From the NCBI RefSeq assembly GCF_988243305.1, contig NZ_OZ547136.1: 64,000 nucleotides of DNA, one strand, 5' to 3'. Under the pieces are notes generated by a model. The model saw only the letters and a list, made by a program, of their open reading frames with translations. It did no database searches and had not been told where the DNA came from. Each line of letters starts with the position of its first letter. The stretch's first letter is position 1. Position numbers and translations under genes: made by a program. Shown in pieces: positions 39,474-60,144 of this stretch.

Positions 39474-40544
39474 TTATTTAATCCGGGCCATCGCGCTTCT
39501 CAGTGCCAAATCTGCCTCTTCCGTTATCTCCAGACTTTTCTGCAACACCGTTTCTGACCGGGACAGTGCCTGACGTGCTGCCAGCGGTTTCCGGATATGC
39601 TCCATCGTCAGCATCGTGTCCTCGTAGCCCTGCTGACGCCAGGCGTCGGTATGTGCCGACGTGAAACTGAGCAGACCGCCACTGTTGCCACCATCACCTG
39701 CATATTTCAGCCTTTTCCGGGGACGGATCTCAAGGATTGTGGTGTCCGGAAAAGCCTGGCGATCCCATAAAGAACCGTCACTCAGATGCGACACAATCAC
39801 CATATTGCATCCGGCATCGACCAGAGGCGTTACAGGGGTATTTCCCTGCATATTTCGCCATCCTCCCATACCACCATCACCGAACATTGTCCCCTGAACC
39901 TCACGGGGACGGAACAACAGGGGCAGTGCGGCTGACGCAAGCAGAGCCTCTTTCTGCTGTCCGCGGGGCAGACTCTGGATATGCTGAAAAACGGCGTTTT
40001 TCGTGGTTCCGGAACCCAGTTCAGCACGAATGCAGTCAATAATATCCTGCATGCCCCCTTCTGTGGGGTACAGCGACACATACAGCGGTAGCCCGTCTGC
40101 CAGAGCATCTGTATCAAGATAATGATCCATCAGCGCTGTCAGGGGCCCATCTGACAACAACGGCTGAGTCATCGGATTGTCGAAGCCGTTGATTATCGAT
40201 ATATGGCGAAGAAGTGTCGTAAGCAGTGCTCCTGCACGTCCGGGGATCTGGCAGAGGTTCATTGCCTGGAACAATTTTTTCAGCAATGAAAAGTAAACCG
40301 ATCGGTTTACCGACAGCACCTGATTATTCCCAAGATGATCCCAGAGCGCCTCCAGGCGTACGGCAGCTTCTGACAGATCGGGAGAGGCCGCGATAATGGC
40401 ACCATTGAATGCGCCAATGCTGGCCCCTGAAACCATGCTGATCTGTGTACCACACTCTGCCAGTGCCTTAACCACTCCCGCCTGATAAGCGCCCACCGCC
40501 CCACCGCCGGACAGCACCAGCCCTGTTTTTATTTCTATACTCAT
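39474..40544 (-). CDS. Patatin-like phospholipase
   Basis: 356 aa; oxyanion motif SGGGAVGAYQAG, nucleophile GASIG (GxSxG), catalytic Asp in FGDGG; ATG overlaps stop of upstream gene (ATGA). Confidence 0.85.
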   Translation of the reverse strand: MSIEIKTGLVLSGGGAVGAYQAGVVKALAECGTQISMVSGASIGAFNGAIIAASPDLSEAAVRLEALWDHLGNNQVLSVNRSVYFSLLKKLFQAMNLCQIPGRAGALLTTLLRHISIINGFDNPMTQPLLSDGPLTALMDHYLDTDALADGLPLYVSLYPTEGGMQDIIDCIRAELGSGTTKNAVFQHIQSLPRGQQKEALLASAALPLLFRPREVQGTMFGDGGMGGWRNMQGNTPVTPLVDAGCNMVIVSHLSDGSLWDRQAFPDTTILEIRPRKRLKYAGDGGNSGGLLSFTSAHTDAWRQQGYEDTMLTMEHIRKPLAARQALSRSETVLQKSLEITEEADLALRSAMARIK

Positions 40545-41446
40545 GCAGCCCCCTTCTGAAATATTTCATCGACCATACTTTCAGAGAGGCGTTCTGCAGA
40601 GCAGAGACGGGGCATGCGAACCGGTAAGTGTTCTGCAGCCTGCGTGGTTGACCAGATCACCGGATGCTGCTCTTCACTGCACCAGTCCCCCAGCCAGTTA
40701 ATCGCGTCATGCCACTCGTTATCTGCCTGCTCCCGGCCCTGACCACCAAGCCAGTCCAGAGTGTTCAGACGCACGGTTGCACTACCGCCACTCTCCTGTG
40801 CCATCTGCGTTAATGCTTTATGTCTGAGAATATCCAGTAGCTGGTTAACCTGGCCTGTTTCGCCCTGACGTATCACATCACCAAACGCGCCCCAGCGAAG
40901 CTCTTCAAGTGCCACATAACAACGTCCGGCAGGGGAAAATGACGCATATCGCCCGGCGCTCCACCAGGAGAATATCTGCTCAAGATGTAACTGCGCCCGC
41001 TGAACCAGGTCAACACGGTGGAGTTTTTCTTCAAGATGATTCAGTTTCTGGTGAACCTGATCGGCCAGGGTGAGTAACTGCTCCCGCGTATCTGCGGAAT
41101 AATGCGCCAGCCTGGCAGTATCACTGACCAGTGAACTGACCCTGTCGTTTACCCGGGTAATCGCGTAGTTTGTGGTGGCAAGTGACGTTGTCAGCTCCGT
41201 CAGCCAGCGCAGGGACGCCTCAACGCCCTGTGCAAGCGAAGCATTGATGGCATTCTGCCGTGCAGCACCTTCGCCGCTCAGCCCCTCTTTTAACCGCCGG
41301 AAGAACGTGCGCTCTCCGGCCGTACGGATATGCTCCTGTGCAACATCAATACCGTTTGCGAAATCAACCACAAATTTTTCAGGAAGACAGGTGAGTACCT
41401 GACATACCCGGTTATCAGCAATTTGTTGAATAAATGGTGAAGTCAC
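40541..41446 (-). CDS. YjcZ-like protein (partner of dynamin-like GTPase)
   Basis: 301-aa ORF; GTG start overlaps dynamin stop; family call from memory of chromosomal crfC-yjcZ pair. Confidence 0.65.
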   Translation of the reverse strand: MTSPFIQQIADNRVCQVLTCLPEKFVVDFANGIDVAQEHIRTAGERTFFRRLKEGLSGEGAARQNAINASLAQGVEASLRWLTELTTSLATTNYAITRVNDRVSSLVSDTARLAHYSADTREQLLTLADQVHQKLNHLEEKLHRVDLVQRAQLHLEQIFSWWSAGRYASFSPAGRCYVALEELRWGAFGDVIRQGETGQVNQLLDILRHKALTQMAQESGGSATVRLNTLDWLGGQGREQADNEWHDAINWLGDWCSEEQHPVIWSTTQAAEHLPVRMPRLCSAERLSESMVDEIFQKGAA

Positions 41447-43827
41447 AGCATTGTCTCCAGTTCTTCCCTTAACGCCTTACTGTCAGTAATGAGCTCAGGA
41501 ACCCTTTCATTTAACGCCTGAAGACGCCCGGTCAGCCGTTCCTGCGCCTGCTGATCGCGTTTATGATCTTCAGAGCTCTGAATCAGCGTGTTACGCAGCT
41601 GTTCAACTTTCTCCCTGAATGTACAGAAAAAGGCATCGATTTCCTGGCGGACGGGCTGGTTAATATCCTGCTCAATGGATGCCTGCAGCTCCCCGAAATA
41701 TGCCCGGGTCAGTGACATCACTTCCTCTCTGACCTTGTTGATATTGATCACGCTGCGGCTCACATCCACACTGTACTCTTTCCAGCCCCAGTCACTGGTG
41801 TTTGCCCATCGACAAAGCGTACCCCAGACACCATCCTGTCGACAGCGACGGGTTACTGTCTCCGTTCTTTCCTCCATAAGCGCGCTCAGATTTGTTTTTA
41901 CTGCGAGCCGGGTCTGTAACTGGCTGACTGCCGGAAAACTGATTTTTACAGTGAAACCTTCATCCTCCAGACGGGCATTGATGCGTCCGGCAATATTTTC
42001 TGTGGCGTACAGGGCCGTACCACGAAAACCTGTTTCAATACCCCTGACGATTTTTTCCAGTTCAGGACGGAACTGTGCTTCAGCCTCACGGTGCAGGCTG
42101 GTCACGGTCGATTCGATTTGCGTCATCAGTTCAAGGGCTTCCCTGCGATCACTGAATTTTATTTCGGGGCTGTCCGGATCAAAGTCCCGCATCCTGTCAT
42201 GCTGATTTCCGGTTCCGAAAATATCGTGAAAGAAAGCGAATGCGTTTCTCTCCCGGGGCTGCGCTGAATTTTCTTCCTCCAGCATTTGCTGTTCTTTGCG
42301 TTTACCGCTTCTGAAATAGTCATTCAGCTCCTCTTCCAGTGAGGTGCAGACCCCCGTCAGTAATTCCCGGGTTCTGGCATCGATCTCCTCCATGGCCATT
42401 CTGACATCAGCGGTCACCTGCTCCTGACAGTCCGCGATTTCCCGGATATCCGCAAGCAGGCTGGTGATATGCGACTGCAGTGACTGAATGCTTTGCTGTA
42501 GCCCCTGATGGCGTAATGACAGATATTCGCTGACATTTTCCGCATTCTGCATCAGTTTTGCGGCGGCAGAATCAACCGCCAGTGCCGCCGCTCTGGAATG
42601 GGAGCTCTGTATGACTTCCGTTATCAGTTGATCGATAAGTGAGCCTTCCCACAGGTCTGTCGCCCCTTCGGTTGCCATTTCACTGTCTTTACAGACGTAT
42701 TCTTTTTTCATGCGACCGAAGGCTTCCCTGACAAAATCATCGACCCAGGCTTCATCAACAGGAAGGGTTCTGTTTTTCCGTAACTCATGAAGCGCACGGT
42801 TAGCCAGGTACGCCTGACGTGATGAGCCTGGATAAACGCGGGAGGCGGGCAGCACATCGCTGTTCAGCATTGCCGGAACTTTCTGGCGTACGGCATCTGC
42901 CCCATCGCCATTGCGGTCTTTCTCATCAAATTTATTGACCAGCACAAACAGGCGGCCAGCTGATACGTCAGCAATGGCATTAAGCTCTTTACGGACGTCT
43001 TCATCCGCTTTTGAGTTCATCTGGGTGTAATCCATCACCGCCAGCACCGCAGAGGCTTTCTGCAGTTGATCCCGCATCATCACTTCCATCTGCGGTTGTC
43101 CGGCCTCATTAGGGCCGGGGGTATCCAGCAGTGTGAGTGTTCCCTGGCATGGATCCATCCCCACCAGATGGCTGAATTCCACGTCGATCACCGGCAGTTT
43201 CTGCACTTCTGCGTATTCATCAAAAGGAAACTCACTCCCCATTGCCGCAGCAAGGCGAACCAGATCGTTTAACGATGCCAGTCCGGTAAAAATTTCCTCC
43301 TCCCCGTGGTATTCATTTTTGAGCCAGCCATCATTTGCCAGAATATCCAGCAGTTCGCAGGTATCCCCGGTTTGCTGCAGGGTCTGTGCGACTTGCTGTC
43401 CTGCCGGGGTGTCGAGTTTTTGTTTCAGTGTGCTTAATAAATTGCGGACGGGCTGAATATGTTCCAGATGGAGGACCGGCTCAGTTTTTCCGGGAACGTG
43501 GCGGATGAGCGTCGGTACAGAGGTCATGGGGCGGTTACGGTTAGGCAGAATTTCCTGCCCCACAATGGCGTTGATGGTGGTTGATTTACCTGCTTTCATC
43601 GTGCCGACAACAGCCAGCACCATCTCCCTGCGGGCGGTTTTGATTTGTTCGCCCTCCAGCTCCTCAATTCTTTTCAGTGCTTTCTGTTTATCAAAAAGCA
43701 GTCTGTTTTCGTTCTTACTGTCAGATAACACATCCGGCTCATCAACCATTTGCCGGAGCAGATTAATGTTCAGTTGCAAAAGTCGGTCGGCTTCATCACA
43801 AAGCAGGGCGATGTTCTTTTCGTGCAT
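41443..43827 (-). CDS. Bacterial dynamin-like GTPase (CrfC/YjdA- and LeoA-like)
   Basis: 794 aa; G1 GTMKAGKST, G3 DTPGPNE, G4 NKFD; long helical C-terminal region; RBS AGGAAGG upstream of ATG 43827. Confidence 0.85.
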   Translation of the reverse strand: MHEKNIALLCDEADRLLQLNINLLRQMVDEPDVLSDSKNENRLLFDKQKALKRIEELEGEQIKTARREMVLAVVGTMKAGKSTTINAIVGQEILPNRNRPMTSVPTLIRHVPGKTEPVLHLEHIQPVRNLLSTLKQKLDTPAGQQVAQTLQQTGDTCELLDILANDGWLKNEYHGEEEIFTGLASLNDLVRLAAAMGSEFPFDEYAEVQKLPVIDVEFSHLVGMDPCQGTLTLLDTPGPNEAGQPQMEVMMRDQLQKASAVLAVMDYTQMNSKADEDVRKELNAIADVSAGRLFVLVNKFDEKDRNGDGADAVRQKVPAMLNSDVLPASRVYPGSSRQAYLANRALHELRKNRTLPVDEAWVDDFVREAFGRMKKEYVCKDSEMATEGATDLWEGSLIDQLITEVIQSSHSRAAALAVDSAAAKLMQNAENVSEYLSLRHQGLQQSIQSLQSHITSLLADIREIADCQEQVTADVRMAMEEIDARTRELLTGVCTSLEEELNDYFRSGKRKEQQMLEEENSAQPRERNAFAFFHDIFGTGNQHDRMRDFDPDSPEIKFSDRREALELMTQIESTVTSLHREAEAQFRPELEKIVRGIETGFRGTALYATENIAGRINARLEDEGFTVKISFPAVSQLQTRLAVKTNLSALMEERTETVTRRCRQDGVWGTLCRWANTSDWGWKEYSVDVSRSVININKVREEVMSLTRAYFGELQASIEQDINQPVRQEIDAFFCTFREKVEQLRNTLIQSSEDHKRDQQAQERLTGRLQALNERVPELITDSKALREELETML

Positions 43828-44026
43828 TATTTAACCTTCCTGAGACGCATTTTCATGACAACCACGGAGGAGGTCATTTACTACAAACGATCGTTTATAA
43901 CGATCGATATACTCTATTAACTTGAGAAACACAACGCAAGGGGACAACCCGGGTATGGCTGCGTTTGCATAGTGTTTTCATGGAGTTAAAAATCTGTAAC
44001 AATAGCCTGGTACATCACCACCGGGT

Positions 44027-44899
44027 TCAGAAGAAAATCCAGTTCCATACCGCGCGGGCAACAGAGACCACCGAGTCACGGACGGCTCGCAGAACCGTAC
44101 GAGCCACAGAGGCAACACAGACGCTCTCCGCTGTGTCAAATATCCGGTCCACCGCACCGGTAAACTGTTCACGGGCCTGAGAGCGGACAGACTCCGTGCG
44201 CAGTTCGTCCTGCAGGCGGGTCATCAGGGGGCTGGCGGCATGGTCGGGAAGCGCTGTCATGAGCGCACTGACCAGCGTATCCAGTTCCCAGCCGGTGCAG
44301 GCCGATACGGCCACAACCGGATGTACGGGCCGGAACAGCCGGAATACCGCCTCCGTTTTCTCACGAATGTTCTGTGCCTGTGCGGGAGAAGGCTGAATGC
44401 CGGCCATATCCCATTCATGGCAGGGCTCCGTTTTGTCGGCCTGCGTCACCACAAACAGCACCTGCTGATGTCCCCGGTGCAGGATGTGTCGCCAGAAATA
44501 CTCATCCACAGACAGGGCACGGTCATCGGCTTTAATCAGCCACAGTACCAGGTCAAGTTCAGGCAGAATGTCACGGTACAGGGCTTCATACTCTGCATCC
44601 CTGTCCCGGCTCTCGCCCACCCCGGGCAGGTCAGTGATAATCATGCTGTGACCGTGGCCACTCAGACGGAAGCGCCGCACTTCCCGGGTGCCGGCGTGAA
44701 CATCACTGACCGGGGTGACCTCCCCCTGAAACAGCGCATTACAGAGTGAGGATTTACCGGCCCCGCTTTTACCCATAATGCCAATCACGGGTTCGTGACT
44801 GGTGAGTTTGCGCAGATGTTCCTGGATGTGACGGGAAAGTGAGTAAGGCAGGGAGGAGAGCGGTTTTTCAATTGCCTCAATGGCATCAGACGGATTCAT
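44027..44899 (-). CDS. YfjP/YeeP/YkfA-family GTPase of CP4-like islands
   Basis: ATG 44899 (MNPSDAIEAIEKPLSS...); P-loop GIMGKSGAGKSS, DLPG; possible upstream GTG start at 44962. Confidence 0.8.
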   Translation of the reverse strand: MNPSDAIEAIEKPLSSLPYSLSRHIQEHLRKLTSHEPVIGIMGKSGAGKSSLCNALFQGEVTPVSDVHAGTREVRRFRLSGHGHSMIITDLPGVGESRDRDAEYEALYRDILPELDLVLWLIKADDRALSVDEYFWRHILHRGHQQVLFVVTQADKTEPCHEWDMAGIQPSPAQAQNIREKTEAVFRLFRPVHPVVAVSACTGWELDTLVSALMTALPDHAASPLMTRLQDELRTESVRSQAREQFTGAVDRIFDTAESVCVASVARTVLRAVRDSVVSVARAVWNWIFF

Positions 44900-44983
44900 A
44901 CATGTATTCCCGGTGAAAAAAGACAAAACCCCCGCACACCGGAAAGGTGGCGGGGGACTCACAGAGATAATATATGTCTGAAA

Positions 44984-45901
44984 TTATCTGGAATGTCGGT
45001 ACCTTTTATACTCTTCAACAATCAGGTCATGCAGCATTTCGCCGGTACTGAGTCTTCTGACCCTCGATAATTCTTTGAGCTGCGCCCTGGTTTCTGCGTC
45101 AAGAAAAAACTGTACATTGACTTTATCTTCCTGCATTTTTTTGTACTTGCGCTGCGCCTTGGCCTTATTGAAACTGTTTCTGAAATTTTTTATATCGTCA
45201 GGTGAGGTGAGTGTACAGGTAACCCATATGTCAAATGAAAGGTGAATTGCGTGGTAAATATCAGCAGAACCAGGAAAACTGGCCAGTTTTTCCAGTGCAA
45301 TATTTTTTCCCTTCAAATAATTCCATGTCCATATGCATTCATGTTCGTTCTCCGGGAGGAGGTAACTGAAAGGACTCTTTGATTTAAATGCCCGTATCCA
45401 TCTGTCTTTGGTCTGGATTATCCACTCATCCCGCAAATTCTTATCAGAAAGAATATCGAGAACTCTGAGTATTTGTCTGAACTGTGTCGATGAGTCCGAC
45501 GGGAAGGCATTCCCTTCTAAATACTCTTCTTTAAGATACAGTTTATTCTTTTGAAGCAAGTCTGCACTTATTTTTGCCCTGTTATTCTGGATAAACTGCA
45601 TCAACAGATACCAGGAAAATAAGCATGCGCGTTCACTGCCCGCGATCCAGGATATTTTTTCCAGGGGGACCAGGAAGGCCTGGGCCTTCAGACGCATACC
45701 AGAAATGATTTGTTCAAGTTCAAAATCTGAAAGTGTGATGTTCAGATTTTCTCTGTTTTTTTTTATGTAAGCGATAAAACGTTCCGGGGGATCATAAACA
45801 TTAAGGGGCAGTACGGAGATATTACGCTCTCCAAGATAATAAGAGTAATACGCATTTGTTCTTTCATTCATAACCTTATCCGACAAAATTTTCTGAACCA
45901 T
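44984..45901 (-). CDS. AT-rich hypothetical protein with C-terminal ribbon-helix-helix-like segment
   Basis: 305-aa ORF; RBS GGAGAAAGGGG; C-terminus VQFFLDAETRAQLKELSRVRRLSTGEMLHDLIVEEYKRY resembles an RHH DNA-binding fold; base composition visibly lower in GC than neighbours. Confidence 0.7.
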   Translation of the reverse strand: MVQKILSDKVMNERTNAYYSYYLGERNISVLPLNVYDPPERFIAYIKKNRENLNITLSDFELEQIISGMRLKAQAFLVPLEKISWIAGSERACLFSWYLLMQFIQNNRAKISADLLQKNKLYLKEEYLEGNAFPSDSSTQFRQILRVLDILSDKNLRDEWIIQTKDRWIRAFKSKSPFSYLLPENEHECIWTWNYLKGKNIALEKLASFPGSADIYHAIHLSFDIWVTCTLTSPDDIKNFRNSFNKAKAQRKYKKMQEDKVNVQFFLDAETRAQLKELSRVRRLSTGEMLHDLIVEEYKRYRHSR

Positions 45902-51094: not shown

Positions 51095-52633
51095 TTATTC
51101 AGTCGGCAGTGCTACGCGCCAGGGGAGCAGTTCGCCGACCCGGTTTATCGGCCAGTCGGCTATGACGTCAAGGACATAGCGGAGGTAGCTTTCTGGCTCC
51201 ACTCCGTTCAGTTTGCACGTCCCGATCAGGCTGTACAGCAGCGCTCCCCGCTCTCCTCCATGATCCGAACCGAAGAACAGGTAGTTTTTGCGGCCCAGAC
51301 TGACCATCCGCAACGCATTTTCAGCGATGTTATTGTCCGCCTCAGCCCAGCCATCATCTGCATAGTACGTCAGCGCCGGCCACTGGTTCAGGGCGTATGC
51401 GAACGCTTTCGCCAGTTCTGAGTGTCGCGACAGGGTTTTCATCTTTTCACGCAGCCAGCTTTCCAGGGATTTCAGCAGCGGTTTCGTTTTCAACTGACGT
51501 TCGGCAAGGCGCTGTTCCGCCGTCATTCCCCTTATCTCTGCCTCGATGGCGTACAGTTCGCCGATCCGTTTCAGCGCTTCCTCCGTCAGGGCTGACGGGG
51601 TGCGAACGTGCACATCGTGGATTTTACGGCGGGCGTGAGCCCAACAGGCGGCTTCCGTTATCCGGCCATCCCGGTACAGCTCGTTGAACCCGGCGTATGC
51701 ATCCGCCTGCAGTACACCACTGAACCCCGCAAGATGGGTCTGCGGATGGATGCCTTTTCTGTCCGGGCTGTAAGCGAACCACACCGCCGGCGCCAGCGTT
51801 GACCCGGCGTTACGGTCGTCACGAACATACGCCCACAACCGCTCGGTCTTCGTTTTCTTATTGCCTGGCAACAGCACCGGGACAGGCGTGTCATCAACAT
51901 GGAGCTTACCGTCAGTCAGCACATAGCCATGAAGCGCCTCTTCCAGCGGAGACAGCTGCCGGCAGCATGCATCCACCCAGCCCGACAGCAGTGAACGGCT
52001 CAGCTCCACACCTTGCCGGCCGTATATTTCTGACTGGCGATACAGCGGGGTGTGCTCTGCATACTTCGAGGTCAGCACGCGGGCCAGCAGCCCCGGTCCG
52101 GCGATACCCCGCTCGATGGGCCGCGAAGGTGCAGGTGCCTGCACGATGGCATCGCACTGAGTACAGGCATGTTTTTCCCGTACCGTCCGGATAACCCGGA
52201 AGGCGCTACGCATCAACTCCAGCTGTTCGGCGATATCCTCGCCCAGATAGCTCAGTGAACCGCCGCAGTTCGGGCAGCACGGCGCCGCAGGCAACAGTCG
52301 CTTTTCGTCACGGGGTAGTGATTCAGGGAACGGCTTACGGGTGCGGGTCTGACGCAACGGACGCTGTACTGCCGGGTCATACACCCTACCAGTCAGCGTA
52401 TCGCTCTCTTTCTGAAGCCGGTTCAGATCGGCTTCCATTTGTGCGATACGGCGGGAGACTTTTTCGGAACGACTGCCGAAGTTCATCCGGCGGAGTTTAT
52501 CCAGCTGCGCCTGCAGATGGTCTATTTCGCGCTCCCGGTTGCTCAGCTTTTCCTGCAGGGCGTGGATCAGCGCTTCCTGTTCGGCCAGGCGCTGTTTCAG
52601 CAGGAAAATGTCGTCAGAAGAGATGTCGTTCAT
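51095..52633 (-). CDS. IS66-family transposase TnpC (full length)
   Basis: About 512 aa from [14 protein letters not shown]... (ORF extends to 52669); CxxC zinc motifs and DDE region. Confidence 0.85.
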
Positions 52634-53730
52634 ACATCGTGTATTTTTCGCCGGGCATGGACCCAGCACGCAACTTCTGTCTGTGCACCACCTTCACGTT
52701 TGGCACTGAACAGCCGATCGTAACCGCTGAATGCATCCGCCTGCAGGATACCCCGGAAGGGACGAAGGTGTTGTACCGGATGTTTTCCCTGCCTGTCTGG
52801 TGAGTAGGCGAACCAGACCGCCGGTGGCTCTGATGAGCCCGCATTCCGGTCATCCCGGACATACGTCCAGATGCGTCCTGTTTTTGCCTTTTTTCTGCCC
52901 GGTGTCAGCACTTTTACCGGTGTGTCGTCAGTGTGAACCTTGCGGGTGTTCATCACGTAACGGTACAGGGCATCATTCAGCGGAGTCATTAACTGGCAGC
53001 ACGCGTCAACCCAGTTGGAGATTAATGCACGGCTCAGTTCGGCACCCTGTCGGGCAAAGATTTCACTCTGACGATACAGTGGCAGGTGTTCGCAGTATTT
53101 TCCCGTTAACACGCGGGCAAGTAATCCGGAGCCCGCGATGCCGCGCGCTATCGGGCGGGACGGCGCTGGCGCTTCAACTATACAGTCACATTTTGTACAG
53201 GCTTTTTTTACCCGAACAGTGCGGATCACTTTCAGGGCGCTACTCACCAGTTCCAGCTGCTCAGCACTGACTTCACCCAGATAATCCAGCTCACTGCCAC
53301 ACTCCGGGCAACAACTTTCTTCAGGCTCCAGGCGGTGTATTTCACGGGGAAGATGTGCTGGTAACGGACGACGATGACGTGACTGTCGCAACTGGCGGGG
53401 AACCTGCGGGTCATCCTCACGCCCACTGTAACGATCGCTTTCCTGTTCGCGTTGTTTCAGTTGGGCCTCAGCCTGTTCAACCTCACGCTGCAGTTTTTCA
53501 GAACGGGTACCGAACAGCATCCGGCGCAGTTTTTCTATCTGGGCCCTCAGATATTCTATTTCCCGCTCCTCCTCTTCGATCTTTTCTTCGGCACGTGCCA
53601 GTGCAGAGCGCAGGAAGGCCTCCGTCTCTTCAACCAGACTCAGTTGCAGATCTCTCTGACGGAGGGCTTCAGCCTGCTCAGAGAGCAGCCTTTCCAGCTC
53701 AGTGATACGAATGAGGTATTTCCGACTCAT
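52630..53730 (-). CDS. IS66-family transposase TnpC, C-terminally truncated copy
   Basis: 366 aa [19 protein letters not shown]... ending at the conserved ARRKIHDV motif. Confidence 0.8.
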
Positions 53731-55194: not shown

Positions 55195-56112
55195 ATGCAA
55201 TGTGAATTTAAAGGGGTCATATCAGCATTACCCACTCCTTATGACCAATCCCAGCAAACCGATATGGAGAGTCTTCGAAAACTGATCCGTTTTAATATCG
55301 AACAAAATATTAAGGGATTGTATGTTGGAGGCTCTACTGGAGAAGCATTTCTTCAGAATGTTGCAGAGCGAGAAAAAATTCTTGAAACAGTAGCCGATGA
55401 ATCAGATGGAAGACTGACACTTATAGCGCATGTGGGCGGAATCAGTACGGCAGAAAGCGAGGTACTTGCAAAAGCTGCAAAAAAATACGGATATCATGCT
55501 ATATCTGCTGTTACTCCATTTTATTATCCTTTTTCATTTGAAGAGCATTGTATCCATTACAGGAAGATTATTGATTCTGCAGATGGACTTCCGATGGTAG
55601 TTTATAATATACCGGCTCTTAGCGGAGTGCGTTTTTCTTTAGATCAGATAAATGAGCTTGTCACAATACCCAGGGTTTGTGCATTAAAACAGACATCCGG
55701 TGATTTATTCCAGATGGAACAAATCAAAAGGAATCATCCAGAGCTTGTGTTATATAATGGTTACGATGAAATATTTGCATCAGGGTTAATTGCAGGTGCA
55801 GATGGGGGAATCGGTAGTACATATAATATAATGGGGTGGCGTTATCTTGAAATATTTGAAGCAGTCAAAAACAATGATGTGATTAAGGCGAAGGAAATGC
55901 AAGTAGCCTGTAACCAGGTTATTGACACTCTTATTCAGAGTGGTGTCCTGGCAGGTATAAAAACTCTTCTTTACTATATGGGGATTATAAATACTCCTGT
56001 ATGCAGAAGTCCTTTTTCTCCGGTAAAGGAAAAGAATCTGGATGTATTATCAAAACTTGCAGAGCGACTGTTCGAAGAACATGACAGAAACAAAAAAATG
56101 AAAATAATCTGA
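55195..56112 (+). CDS. N-acetylneuraminate lyase paralogue (NanA-like, DHDPS family)
   Basis: 305 aa; GGSTGE and Schiff-base Lys region (ALKQTSGDL) resemble NanA. Confidence 0.8.
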
Positions 56113-56145
56113 ATAATTGCAAGATTGTTATATAGGTGAAAATGA

Positions 56146-57021
56146 ATGATAACACTGGCTGTTGATATAGGAGGAACGAAAATTTCAGCGGCGTTGATAT
56201 CTGATGACGGTTCATTTTTGCTGAAAAAACAGATATCAACACCTCATGAAAGATGTCCTGACGAAATGACAGGGGCTTTACGTCTACTGGTTTCTGAAAT
56301 GAAGGGAACAGCGGAGCGATTTGCAGTAGCATCAACAGGGATTATTAATAATGGAGTATTGACAGCTCTGAATCCAGACAATCTTGGAGGGCTGAAAGAG
56401 TATCCTCTGAAAAATATAATGGAAGATATAACTGGTTTAAATGGAAGTGTGATAAATGATGCCCAGGCAGCCGCATGGGCAGAATATACAGTTTTGCCGA
56501 AAGAAATTTGTGATATGGTTTTTATAACCGTTTCTACGGGGGTTGGAGGGGGAATTGTAGTTAACAGAAAATTATTAACAGGTGTTTCTGGATTAGCCGG
56601 ACATGTTGGGCATATATTGTCCGGAGTAACGGATACAGAATGTGGATGTGGTCGTCGGGGATGCGTTGAAGCGGTTTCATCTGGTCGGGCCATCATGGGG
56701 GCAGCAAAAAATAAACTTGCAGGATATAGCACCAAATATATTTTTGAATTAGCGAGACAGGGATATAAGGAAGCAGAATTTTTGACAGAGCGTTCTGCCA
56801 GTACTATTGCTGAATTAATAGTAAGTTTAAAATTACTGCTTGATTGTCAGGTTGTTGTTGTCGGAGGAAGTGTTGGACTTGCTGATGGGTATGTTCAGAA
56901 AGTGTCGAAACATCTTTCCATATATTCTGAAATTTGTAATGTAATGCTGTTTCCGGCATATTTCAGAAGTGACTCTGGTCTTATTGGTGCAACTCTTTGG
57001 GACCGGGATTGTATTACTTAA
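56146..57021 (+). CDS. ROK-family sugar kinase (NanK-like)
   Basis: 291 aa; N-terminal DIGGTK and ROK zinc motif CGCGRRGC. Confidence 0.8.
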   Translation: MITLAVDIGGTKISAALISDDGSFLLKKQISTPHERCPDEMTGALRLLVSEMKGTAERFAVASTGIINNGVLTALNPDNLGGLKEYPLKNIMEDITGLNGSVINDAQAAAWAEYTVLPKEICDMVFITVSTGVGGGIVVNRKLLTGVSGLAGHVGHILSGVTDTECGCGRRGCVEAVSSGRAIMGAAKNKLAGYSTKYIFELARQGYKEAEFLTERSASTIAELIVSLKLLLDCQVVVVGGSVGLADGYVQKVSKHLSIYSEICNVMLFPAYFRSDSGLIGATLWDRDCIT

Positions 57022-57069
57022 AGTAATACTCCAGTGTATTATAAATCCGCTATTATTGTGAGGTTTAAT

Positions 57070-58536
57070 ATGGACTCCTGTATTCAGAAAAAGCAGGTTT
57101 GGTATAAGCATCTTTCACCCAGACAGTGGAAGATATTCGGTGCGGCATGGACAGGTTATTTACTTGATGGTTTTGATTTCGTTCTGATATCTCTGGTTCT
57201 TACAGAGGTTCAGCATGAATTCGGCTTGACGACAATAGAAGCGGCAAGCCTTATTTCCGCTGCTTTTATTTCTCGATGGTTTGGGGGGCTTGCTATTGGC
57301 GCTTTATCGGACAAGATGGGGCGCAGGATGGCAATGGTTTTAAGTATAGTGCTATTCTCTCTCGGAACCCTTGCCTGTGGTCTGGCTCCTGGATATGCAG
57401 TGATGTTTATTGCTCGCATTGTTATTGGGCTTGGTATGGCAGGTGAATATGGCTCAAGTGTAACATATGTTATCGAAAGCTGGCCTGTTCATCTCAGAAA
57501 CAAGGCAAGTGGTTTTTTAATTTCTGGATTTTCTATTGGGGGAGGTTTAGCTGCACAGGTTTATAGCATTGTAGTACCACTATGGGGCTGGCGTTCTCTT
57601 TTCTTTGTCGGCATGCTTCCAATATTATTTGCTTTTTATCTTCGCAAGAATCTTCCGGAGTCTGATGACTGGCAAAAAAGGCAACAAGAGAATAAACCCG
57701 TCAGAACAATGGTGGATATTCTGTACAGAGAAAAGAATAAATACATAAATATTCTTCTGTCTTGTATTGCATTTGCATGTCTATATGTTTGTTTTTCAGG
57801 CGTCACTGCAAACGCTGCTTTAATCACAGTTATGGCATTGTGCTGTGCGGCTGTTTTTATCAGTTTTATATATCAGGGTATGGGGAAAAGATGGCCAACA
57901 GGCATTATGTTGATGCTTGTGGTTATGTTCTGTTTCCTCTACGGATGGCCACTGCAGGCTTTTCTTCCTACATGGCTTAAGGTTGATATGCAGTATTCAC
58001 CAGAAACTGTTGCTCTCATATTTATGCTGGCAGGTTTTGGCTCTGCAGCTGGAAGTTGTATAGGTGGTTTTATGGGGGACTGGCTTGGAACCCGAAAAGC
58101 ATATGTTATATCACTTCTTATCGGTCAGCTTGTTATTATCCCCGTTTTTCTTGTGGACCGGGACTATGTATGGTTACTTGGCCTTCTAATCTTTACTCAG
58201 CAGGTTTTTGGTCAGGGGATTGGTGCTCTGGTGCCGAAAATAATCAGTGGTTATTTTAATGTGGAGCAGCGTGCGGCAGGACTGGGGTTTATTTATAATG
58301 TAGGTTCACTTGGTGGAGCATGTGCGCCTATTCTTGGTGCAGTTGTTGCGTCTCATACAAGTCTTGGTACAGCAATGTGTTCTCTTGCTTTTATCTTAAC
58401 ATTTGTTGTTCTTGTCCTTATTGGTTTTGATATGCCATCACGTGTACAGAGATGGATCCATCCAGAAGCTGCGCTTGAATATGATACTGTCGATGGAAAA
58501 CCTTTTTATGGAGCAAGAAAAAAGAATGTTGCATAA
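57070..58536 (+). CDS. MFS sialic-acid-type transporter (NanT-like)
   Basis: ATG 57070 ([37 protein letters not shown]...); about 12 TM helices. Confidence 0.8.
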
Positions 58537-58566
58537 GAATAACGGATGCTATCAGGGAATAAAAAA

Positions 58567-59376
58567 ATGATTCATTACAGGGAGAATATATATTCTCTTG
58601 ATAATTATGAGCGTTATATAACTGACAGTTCGCTATTTGAGAATACTGGCGATGGCATAATATATACAGGTATTGTGCCCCTTATTACAGTTGTTGAGCC
58701 TGTTGTATCTAATCAACATAGTGTGCTGATTATACCTGGAGGTGGATACAGGAGGATTGTTTATGAAAGAGAGGGACTTGATGTTGGCAGATGGATAGCA
58801 GGTCAGGGATATACGGCATTTATTCTTTCTTACAGAATGCCCTCCGTTAATGGTTATTATTCCTTTGCAGATGCGAAGAATGCCCTGAACTTTATTTCTT
58901 ACTGGGCCGGAATGTCGGAGAGAACATTTAAGAGTGTTGGATGTATGGGGTTTTCGGCAGGTGGTCATCTTGCTGGATATATTACTCATCTCCATTATGA
59001 GGAAGAGACTTCTGTGCGTCCTGACTGGATGGCTCTGATATATCCAGTTATATCTCTTGACAGGAGTATTGCTCATCAGGGATGCCGGAAACGTCTTCTG
59101 GATGCAGGTGAAAGTGAATATTCAGCCAGTCTTGAAAATAGTGTTACAGAGTATATGCCACCAGTCTTTATTGTGCATGCAACAGATGATAAGGATGTTC
59201 CAGTTATTCATTCTCTGAGATATTTTAACTCTATTCGGGATAAGGGACATCATGCAGAAGCTCATTTTTTTGATAAGGGAGGTCATGGATTTGGTGTATC
59301 CGGAAAAAATGGATATCCGATAGAAAAATGGCAAAGCCTGCTTCTGGAATGGCTTGCGGAACATAAGTTTTATTGA
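58567..59376 (+). CDS. Alpha/beta-hydrolase esterase (copy 1)
   Basis: RBS AGGGA upstream of ATG 58567; IIPGGGY and nucleophile GFSAGGH motifs. Confidence 0.75.
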   Translation: MIHYRENIYSLDNYERYITDSSLFENTGDGIIYTGIVPLITVVEPVVSNQHSVLIIPGGGYRRIVYEREGLDVGRWIAGQGYTAFILSYRMPSVNGYYSFADAKNALNFISYWAGMSERTFKSVGCMGFSAGGHLAGYITHLHYEEETSVRPDWMALIYPVISLDRSIAHQGCRKRLLDAGESEYSASLENSVTEYMPPVFIVHATDDKDVPVIHSLRYFNSIRDKGHHAEAHFFDKGGHGFGVSGKNGYPIEKWQSLLLEWLAEHKFY

Positions 59377-59421
59377 GAAATCAAATTACAAGTGATAAAT
59401 ATATTTAATGATGAGGCATTT

Positions 59422-60132
59422 ATGAAAAAATATTATCCACTATTAACTGTAATTCTTCTTGGTTTACCTTTGTGCTCTCAGGCATTAACTCTTAATCTAC
59501 GTGGGGGATACAGAAGCGCCAGTCACGCTTATGAAACGTTGATTCAGGTTAGTCAGGGGTGGAATAATGGTTGGTGGGCAAGTTTTGAGTCAAACACCTG
59601 GAATACAATTCACAACAATGAAAATGAATTGTTTGCACTCAATTATAATAAAATAGATATAAATAAAACATATAAAATAGATGACAAATGGGCTCTAATC
59701 CCAGGGATTCAGACACAATGGATGTCAGCAGGAAGTCAGTATAACCCTTATCTGAAAATTTCGTATCAGGCAACGCCAGATCTTAATCTGGCCTTACGCT
59801 ATCGCTATGACTGGAAAGCTTTCCGACAGACGGATTTAGATGGCAACAGGGCGCGTAATGATCAGCATCAGTTTGATGGTTATGTGACATACAAAATTAA
59901 TGATTCATGGTTGTTTGCATGGCAGACCACGGTATATACGAAGGTTAATAATTTCAAATATGGGAATCATAAAAAAACAGCAACTGAAAATGCATTTGTT
60001 CTGCAATATAAAATGTCACCGGTGTTCACCCCATATATAGAATATGATTACTTGGATAAACAAGGGGTGTATAAGGGGAAAGATAATAAACATGAAAATA
60101 GTTACCGTGTCGGTGTTCTGATTAATTTTTAA
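59422..60132 (+). CDS. KdgM/NanC-family outer-membrane channel
   Basis: ATG 59422 (MKKYYPLLTVILLGLPLCSQA...); signal peptide; C-terminal beta-strand ending in F. Confidence 0.8.
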   Translation: MKKYYPLLTVILLGLPLCSQALTLNLRGGYRSASHAYETLIQVSQGWNNGWWASFESNTWNTIHNNENELFALNYNKIDINKTYKIDDKWALIPGIQTQWMSAGSQYNPYLKISYQATPDLNLALRYRYDWKAFRQTDLDGNRARNDQHQFDGYVTYKINDSWLFAWQTTVYTKVNNFKYGNHKKTATENAFVLQYKMSPVFTPYIEYDYLDKQGVYKGKDNKHENSYRVGVLINF

Positions 60133-60144
60133 AAGGTGATTACA

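Follow-up and report, generated by a model that had tools for sequence, protein, structure and literature searches.

Introduction

Several described systems come close to the locus considered here, a three-gene operon encoding a dynamin-like GTPase, a YjcZ-type protein and a patatin-like phospholipase, which lies on the minus strand at 39474..43827 of a 64,000-nucleotide stretch of contig NZ_OZ547136.1 (NCBI RefSeq assembly GCF_988243305.1); this whole stretch is called the window hereafter. We report that the trio is an intact, self-contained and horizontally mobile operon conserved across phyla, that on protein distance trees it appears to be the ancestor of the E. coli pair CrfC/RdcA-RdcB, and that it is probably a membrane-acting phage-defence or stress module.

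The first two genes of the trio belong to the same two families as the core chromosomal pair CrfC/RdcA (YjdA) and RdcB (YjcZ), which has been implicated in nucleoid partition and in cyclic di-GMP (c-di-GMP) signalling. Core RdcA binds RdcB tightly in two-hybrid assays and also binds the MASE1 domain of DgcE, GTP hydrolysis is needed, and RdcA and RdcB activate DgcE (PMC6510439); a clamp-binding motif, 41-QLALP, has been described in CrfC (PMC6374313). Gene order, a 4-nt overlap and identical dynamin G motifs are common to the core pair and the window module, yet the proteins are no more than about 30-34% identical and the window GTPase scores under the NCBIfam equivalog cut-off. The window module further differs by its third gene (the patatin), by a basic/aromatic tip loop about 30 aa longer and by the lack of QLALP, and whereas the core pair is a two-gene locus fixed between yjdM and proP (locus L011), the window module is mobile and accessory and is carried by a CP4-like island.

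By structure, the best kin of the GTPase are BDLP (from Nostoc), SynDLP, IniA and DynA, with a GTPase domain, a long helical hairpin stalk and a membrane-interacting tip, but sequence identity to these proteins is 12-14%. The membrane paddle of BDLP sits at the stalk tip; the tip of the window GTPase is predicted to be a disordered basic/aromatic loop. DynA, IniA and LeoA have been proposed to repair, fuse or bud membrane. To our knowledge none of BDLP, SynDLP, IniA and DynA works with a YjcZ-type partner or a lipase. DynA is cited in PMC12922286 as delaying phage lysis in B. subtilis.

Eleos (LeoA with LeoBC) and the LeoABC proteins of enterotoxigenic E. coli likewise involve dynamin-like GTPases on E. 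coli islands, with a proposed role in defence or vesicle formation, but they consist of two or three dynamin-like proteins and have neither a YjcZ protein nor a lipase. On the PADLOC models the 794-aa window GTPase reached 22 bits with LeoBC (1.9e-5, no significant domain) and gave no match to LeoA. CapV, from the cyclic-oligonucleotide-based anti-phage signalling system (CBASS), is likewise a patatin with a Ser-Asp dyad and a length of about 350 aa, and its gene is the last of a mobile operon; activation of CapV degrades the inner membrane and aborts infection. The upstream partners in the trio are instead a GTPase and a helical protein, and since no CD-NTase cyclase was found in the operon or among its neighbours, activation by a cyclic nucleotide made in cis is not expected. 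The window patatin scored 18.3 bits on the NCBIfam CBASS_lipase model, for which the cut-off is 200, and 1e-4 with no significant domain on the PADLOC phospholipase effector models.

Identities as CrfC, LeoBC, CapV or RssA were accordingly considered and rejected, these being sub-threshold PADLOC or NCBIfam matches only. The marginal PADLOC matches agree with the trio being neither Eleos nor any other catalogued defence system. An earlier, sequence-only reading of this stretch did not recognise the arrangement as a described system, which stands in so far as the literature search found no tested function, and needs qualifying in so far as RefSeq names the genes and PMC12922286 calls the operon a putative defence. 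What was already known is the trio as an annotation and as a transcriptome observation; what is new is that it is conserved across phyla, how it relates to the core pair, the tip loop and the association with regulators. Dynamin-like defence or remodelling proteins and patatin effectors are each known, while their combination with a dedicated adaptor is uncharacterised.

Results

An intact operon under selection

The operon has the following features:

41443..43827, minus strand: gene 1, dynamin-like GTPase (794 aa, ATG start; table of open reading frames, ORFs)
43579..43605, minus strand: P-loop (G1) GTMKAGKST, residues 75-83 of the gene 1 protein (read from the sequence)
42178..42264, minus strand: tip loop, residues 522-550 of the gene 1 protein (AQPRERNAFAFFHDIFGTGNQHDRMRDFD; alignment and AlphaFold2 model)
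40541..41446, minus strand: gene 2, YjcZ/RdcB-family partner (301 aa, GTG start overlapping the gene 1 stop)
39474..40544, minus strand: gene 3, patatin-like phospholipase (356 aa; its ATG overlaps the gene 2 stop)
40413..40427, minus strand: GxSxG nucleophile elbow GASIG with Ser42 (from the sequence; conserved 35/35)
39438..39454, minus strand: intrinsic-terminator-like hairpin and T run, 20 nt past the patatin stop (terminator scan)

On the strand read, genes 1 and 2 share the four nucleotides GTGA (41446-41443) and genes 2 and 3 share ATGA (40544-40541). The hairpin past the patatin is GC-rich, with a 7-pair stem containing 5 GC pairs followed by TTTTTCC, and because of these stop/start overlaps and the terminator-like hairpin we regard the three genes as a closed unit. 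A purine-rich, Shine-Dalgarno-like AGGAAGG stands 7-13 nt 5' of the gene 1 ATG. The coordinates, overlaps and translational coupling given by the sequence-only reading are exact to the base when set against the ORF table and the strand read, and the motifs that it listed (GTMKAGKST, DTPGPNE, NKFD, GGGxxG, GxSxG and DGG) are all present in the translations.

Profile searches bore out all three gene identities of the sequence-only reading, including that of YjcZ. Gene 1 matched Pfam Dynamin_N (3.2e-18), gene 2 matched YjcZ (PF13990, 2.4e-71) over model positions 1-272 of 272, and gene 3 matched Patatin (PF01734, 2.3e-24) over residues 9-239. In the GTPase the G motifs are GTMKAGKST at 75-83, T102 (G2), DTPGPNE at 235-241 (DTPG at 235-238) and NKFD at 298-301; G1-G4 of the dynamin GTPase are conserved in 80/80 homologues, with P-loop residues G75, K78, G80, K81 and S82 invariant in 80/80. 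The patatin signature comprises GGGAVG at 13-18, GASIG at 40-44 and DGG at 223-225, so that the Ser42-Asp223 dyad is intact, and G13, G14, G15, G18, S42, D223 and G224 are conserved in 35/35 patatins. Compared with another E. coli copy, the three genes have ratios of non-synonymous to synonymous substitution rates (dN/dS) of 0.13-0.33; the row for the E. albertii dynamin was left out of this analysis owing to indel mis-registration. Given these ratios and the full conservation of catalytic residues (35/35 patatins, 80/80 dynamins), the ORFs are not chance ones.

Distribution and co-inheritance

Among 5426 complete E. coli genomes, 2441 contain the 4.7-kb stretch carrying the trio at a coverage of at least 80%; the median is one copy and the maximum five. 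RefSeq names the products "dynamin family protein", "diguanylate cyclase regulator RdcB family protein" and "patatin-like phospholipase family protein". Pseudomonas fluorescens, Vibrio vulnificus and Pectobacterium have an identical gene order, with ORFs that overlap or abut. Plasmids of Klebsiella, Enterobacter and E. coli, IncF plasmids among them, carry the trio as a variant of about 64% identity, and a mobilisable Nostoc plasmid has the trio with a YjcZ only 20-25% identical.

A species-level scan, in which one genome per species was taken and a YjcZ alignment served as the query, returned 79 loci. All 29 of the non-core YjcZ loci have dynamin, YjcZ and patatin in that order, and the trio is also present in 3/3 further distant YjcZ representatives. 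Carriers of the non-core loci, beta- and gammaproteobacteria among them, include Pantoea, Erwinia, Budvicia, Serratia, Pseudomonas, Allochromatium, Thiodictyon, Gallionella, Macromonas, Aquaspirillum, Comamonadaceae, Marinospirillum and a Synergistaceae metagenome-assembled genome (MAG). The core crfC-rdcB loci, confined to Enterobacteriaceae, are without a patatin in their 7-kb flanks in 50 of 50 cases. Gene junctions across the scanned loci are mostly -4 or -1 nt. The pairwise distance matrices of the three proteins are correlated (r = 0.81-0.91, Mantel p = 0.001). The co-occurrence of the genes, which the sequence-only reading had left to be checked, is therefore no local oddity, being conserved in 29/29 non-core loci.

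As a separate observation, the ORF in the dynamin position of the Synergistaceae MAG (locus L040, 1290-6356) is 1688 aa long, twice the usual length, and is possibly a fused or tandem dynamin or an artefact of ORF extension.

Relation to the core crfC-rdcB pair

On the NCBIfam CrfC model NF007368 gene 1 scored 560.1 bits against an equivalog cut-off of 1146, and since this is far under the cut-off we take it to be a CrfC/RdcA paralogue and not CrfC itself. Neighbour-joining trees of either protein (dynamin or YjcZ), rooted on Nostoc, place the patatin-less core clade as a monophyletic group inside the three-gene clade. In a tree of the concatenated dynamin and YjcZ proteins (41 taxa, 1062 columns) the core clade was monophyletic in 200/200 bootstraps, and the three-gene loci of Budvicia and Serratia oryzae formed its sister in 200/200. 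These are distance trees, and their outgroup is itself a three-gene locus. Because the core clade is nested in the three-gene clade, the lipase would by parsimony be ancestral and the chromosomal pair would have lost it, an ancestor of the Enterobacteriaceae having fixed a lipase-less copy between yjdM and proP. The sequence-only reading had proposed a duplicated crfC-yjcZ pair that gained a lipase; with a patatin at 29/29 non-core loci and at none of 50 core loci, and with nesting in 200/200 bootstraps, that direction is to be reversed.

The motif 41-QLALP is absent at the aligned position (..ENRLLFDKQ..) in the window protein and in all three-gene homologues, and it also varies in the core clade outside E. 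coli. Whatever the function of the trio, the phylogeny offers a concrete origin for CrfC/RdcA-RdcB, and it suggests why CrfC is without a membrane-binding motif. For the island copies it also makes "diguanylate cyclase regulator RdcB family" a misleading RefSeq name, and the labels "crfC" and "rssA" mislead likewise. A study of resistance evolution in E. coli ATCC25922 (PMC7696260, Table 3) assigns 122 variants to "crfC", 75 to "rssA" (patatin), 10 to "yeeP" and 3 to "yjcZ"; read mis-mapping or gene conversion between paralogous copies of the island module fits this pattern better than real mutations of the core genes.

The GTPase and its tip loop

The AlphaFold2 (AF2) model of gene 1, with a mean predicted local distance difference test (pLDDT) of 78.6, shows a GTPase domain that leads into a long hairpin of antiparallel helices. 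The best solved matches in Foldseek were BDLP (2j69, 1.3e-12), SynDLP (1.5e-12), IniA (4.6e-10) and MFN2 (4e-9), all at probability 1.00, and further matches were to mitofusins, the Campylobacter dynamin-like protein pair and LeoA (4aur, E 7.8e-6). Their TM-scores are low (0.2-0.3) because the domain orientations differ. On this model the protein is a member of the dynamin superfamily with a BDLP/mitofusin-like fold.

In the model, residues 522-550 form a low-confidence loop at the bend from helix 447-521 to helix 561-622, the distal stalk tip. This loop is preceded by a charged KRKEQQ.. stretch from residue 508, and the two together form a candidate membrane paddle. The segment between the conserved GK (508-509) and DFDP (548-551) has a median length of 51 aa in 29 three-gene dynamins as against 20 aa in 51 core CrfC proteins. 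The extra tip segment consists of a K/R-rich stretch and then an aromatic/hydrophobic run rich in F, W and Y, for instance NAFAFFHDIFG in the window, GIKSTFGAFFSPFF and GLQSLFSSAFKMLGKW in other species and LFQYFGFDVLF in Nostoc. With such a candidate paddle the lipase-linked dynamins may act at the membrane, and the comparison of the clades suggests that lipase loss and tip loss went together in the core clade.

The YjcZ-type protein and the patatin

Gene 2, which is 30-31% identical to RdcB, is predicted to be all-helical (pLDDT 85.7, predicted TM-score, pTM, 0.85). The YjcZ family is small, with 507 clusters at 50% identity among 1.84 billion proteins, and the window member had zero matches in PADLOC-DB. 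Homology and the RdcA-RdcB two-hybrid result together lead us to infer that the GTPase binds the YjcZ-type protein; most likely, by analogy, the binding seen for the core proteins applies to the island paralogues too.

Matches of the YjcZ alignment to PDB profiles were read as coiled-coil noise. Profile positions of about 58-155 matched coronavirus spike heptad repeat 1 (HR1), reovirus sigma-1 and designed coiled coils with E values of 1e-7 to 1e-3, which suggests that the N-terminal half of YjcZ proteins forms long coiled coils. Rosetta-stone fusions were also considered and set aside: the longer YjcZ-family representatives are a deletion chimera of core crfC-rdcB (P0135) or carry unidentified extensions, and the YjcZ-patatin "fusions" in E. 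coli, which are 96% identical to the window, look like frameshift artefacts.

The patatin lies far under the CapV and RssA equivalog cut-offs. The nearest solved patatins, PlpD and VipD, match it over the N-terminal ~60 residues only, which hold the Gly-rich loop and the nucleophile elbow. In some E. coli lineages the patatin gene is often degraded to truncated copies. Certain of these (P0017, P0026 and P0040; 205-262 aa, hundreds of members) are named "ferredoxin reductase" in NCBI records, which looks like a propagated mis-annotation.

Neighbourhoods and the upstream region

Apart from two kinds of WYL-domain regulator and an occasional small downstream ORF, clustering of the flanking ORFs across loci brought up no other conserved gene. 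Of 28 loci outside E. coli, at least 10 have regulators of the WYL/BrxR type within 7 kb of the trio; in Gallionella, Marinospirillum and V. vulnificus these are encoded immediately upstream, on the strand of the trio. WYL-type regulators are the usual companions of bacteriophage exclusion (BREX) systems (BrxR) and of many CBASS operons (CapW). BREX itself adjoins the trio in V. vulnificus and Pantoea eucrina; near it, E. albertii has a type III methyltransferase, P. putida a type I methyltransferase, Marinospirillum a type ISP/MmeI-like enzyme and P. fluorescens SIR2 with BrxR, while a dGTPase, a type I restriction-modification (RM) system and DarTG adjoin it in E. coli C311. Two elements upstream of gene 1 may bear on its expression:

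43828..44026, minus strand: upstream intergenic region of 199 bp with ATCGATCGTT repeats and the ribosome-binding site
43888..43906, minus strand: perfect 8-bp inverted repeat CGATCGTT-ATA-AACGATCG with two Dam GATC sites, a candidate operator

The inverted repeat lies about 60-80 nt 5' of the gene 1 start codon, and a scan of the 199-bp region found no sigma-70 consensus promoter. Each ATCGATCGTT repeat upstream of the dynamin gene contains one Dam GATC site, and the window has an inverted pair; a third, direct copy is present in other E. coli copies (L001, L002) and in those of E. albertii, and its absence from the window amounts to a 19-bp indel. The repeats are not conserved in Pectobacterium or in the plasmid variants. 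Such repeats might serve as an operator or as a phase switch that depends on Dam.

A 2026 transcriptome study (PMC12922286) found strong up-regulation of the operon, as one unit, in a Kapi1 lysogen under all conditions, noted its ~30% identity to core RdcAB and called it a putative dynamin phage-defence system. If the repeats do phase-switch, this up-regulation could be a clonal ON state rather than an effect of the phage. The trio genes are also among those of an island in E. coli O118 producing Shiga toxin (PMC13182975).

Discussion

We tentatively favour the view, to which we give a little less than an even chance, that the trio is an inducible defence against phages or membrane damage, carried as island and plasmid cargo, in which a GTPase-YjcZ complex controls a membrane lipase. 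A defence role is suggested by the association with defence neighbourhoods. In the mechanism we propose, the dynamin-like GTPase would oligomerise and dock on the inner membrane via its basic/aromatic stalk-tip loop, and the YjcZ-type protein would bind it as an obligate partner, by analogy with the binding of RdcB to RdcA. GTPase and YjcZ, dependent on GTP hydrolysis, would then position or switch on the patatin phospholipase, presumably the sole enzyme of the trio acting on a substrate, and the resulting lipid hydrolysis might remodel or seal damaged membrane or, if unrestrained, kill the cell.

Several observations weigh against this view. The tip loop is of low confidence in the model and poorly conserved in sequence, so that its composition alone recurs, and a transmembrane segment is found in none of the three proteins. 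No YjcZ homologue was found in a phage collection, and no model in PADLOC-DB v2.0.0 (2023) covers the trio, the GTPase and patatin giving marginal matches only. A strong full-length PADLOC defence match was found among the large flanking ORFs of only 3 of the 17 loci probed, and the defence-neighbourhood counts, which stand without a background rate, are supportive rather than decisive. High prevalence and the multi-copy E. coli genomes also fit an island backbone function. A literature search, with subscription journals outside its coverage, found no published test of the function of the trio on phage, membranes or lipids, and sequence by itself would be compatible with a suicidal, a reparative or a merely regulatory lipase.

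Alternatively, the trio might serve non-suicidal membrane maintenance or vesicle formation, dynamin and lipase together repairing, fusing or budding membrane and so conferring stress tolerance or vesicle release. The nearest folds, BDLP, SynDLP, IniA and mitofusin, are all membrane remodellers, the composition of the tip loop is membrane-active, lysolipids released by the lipase would favour membrane curvature, and free-living environmental bacteria, Gallionella, Allochromatium and Nostoc among them, carry the trio. Against this, the module is strictly accessory, mobile and patchy and stands beside WYL regulators, RM and BREX, which is unusual for housekeeping, and the proposal overlaps with the one we favour, membrane-protective defence being one branch of it; as a separate explanation we consider it unlikely, although by no means far-fetched. 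A role in the maintenance of the mobile element, or in competition, is harder to credit and seems to us improbable. Here the lipase would be a latent toxin held in check by the GTPase and YjcZ, acting in addiction or against competitors. Carriage on plasmids and islands beside toxin-antitoxin pairs (CbtA/CbeA and ParDE in E. coli and Nostoc, PIN/VapBC in Gallionella) is in keeping with such a role, as are the several copies possible per genome and the truncated patatin genes common in some E. coli lineages, which are expected of a costly toxin. However, the putative toxin comes last in a series of translationally coupled genes, nothing points to an unstable antitoxin, and a machinery of 794 and 301 aa, with GTPase motifs conserved 80/80, is elaborate for a simple antitoxin.

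The homology to the core pair raises two further explanations, both of which call on the functions of that pair. The GTPase-YjcZ complex could be a paralogous c-di-GMP regulator that activates DgcE or another MASE1 protein and tunes biofilm, as RdcA and RdcB do DgcE (PMC6510439); the 560 bits on the CrfC model, the full-length YjcZ match and the 30-34% identity speak for it. Yet that score is well under the 1146 cut-off and the RefSeq name is a family-level label only, the true RdcAB clade is without the obligatory patatin and the tip loop, the trio extends to distant phyla and to plasmids and has no cyclase gene as a conserved neighbour, and the core function looks like a later domestication, so that this explanation appears quite improbable. 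Least credible of all, to the point that we would be astonished to see it borne out, is a CrfC-like DNA-partition factor that segregates the island or plasmid by binding the replisome clamp: homology to CrfC and plasmid carriage are in its favour, but the motif 41-QLALP (PMC6374313) is missing at the aligned position throughout the three-gene homologues, as described above, and a phospholipase is without an evident role in partition.

Returning to a defence controlled by GTPase and YjcZ, we may speculate on its most specific form, that of a new defence class. A GTP-fuelled dynamin would sense infection-linked membrane damage or, possibly, a shift of the GTP pool, and with its YjcZ adaptor would unleash the patatin, and core CrfC/RdcA-RdcB would be a domesticated remnant without the lipase and the membrane-binding tip. 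We hold this full scheme to be possible but on the unlikely side. If the trio is a defence or membrane-damage system, it would represent a new logic of patatin control, with a dynamin GTPase and an adaptor replacing the cyclic-nucleotide signal. The trio is present in nearly half of complete E. coli genomes, on many plasmids and in environmental bacteria, and what has been published on it consists of annotation labels and one transcriptome remark.

Setting of the operon in the window

In E. coli the trio is set in a CP4-like island backbone, with a YfjP-type GTPase on one side and a block of DUF932, antirestriction, RadC and CbtA/CbeA genes on the other. In the window the upstream neighbour is a YfjP-type GTPase at 44962..44027, and DUF932, antirestriction, RadC and CbtA/CbeA genes follow 2-7 kb downstream of the trio, according to the RefSeq annotation of loci that are 96-98% identical. 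This annotation agrees with the island-cargo setting, the YfjP-type neighbour and the toxin-antitoxin and antirestriction block of the sequence-only reading. The YfjP-type GTPase was rejected as a component of the module and is attributed to the island backbone, since it is missing beside the trio in the plasmid, Vibrio, Gallionella and Nostoc contexts.

An insertion sequence (IS) of the IS1 type lies at about 38547-39314, 120 nt beyond the patatin terminator, and truncates after 8 codons a small gene whose ATG is at 39339 (MKFIVKAL...). The intact form of this gene in E. coli C311 encodes 180 aa with a signal peptide. As a fourth gene of the operon this small secreted-protein ORF was rejected, being cut by IS1 in the window and not conserved elsewhere.

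Upstream of the YfjP-type GTPase, a 305-aa ORF at 44984-45901 lies in a 1-kb stretch far richer in AT than the sequence around it (GC 0.40). It has no NCBIfam or PADLOC match, its C-terminus is ribbon-helix-helix-like, and RefSeq lists it as hypothetical.

Positions 1-32600 of the window are core chromosome, with three tRNA-Gly genes, queG, nnr, amiB, mutL, miaA, hflX/K/C, purA, rnr, rlmB and ulaR/G/A. At its junction with the ula operon, which it directly adjoins, the island has no tRNA gene. Farther along, two IS66 transposase ORFs at 51095-53730 precede a low-GC (0.37-0.42) accessory cluster for sialic-acid use at 55195-62239, which comprises genes for an N-acetylneuraminate lyase, an N-acetylmannosamine kinase, a sialate transporter of the major facilitator superfamily (MFS), a YjhT-type mutarotase and two acetylesterases.

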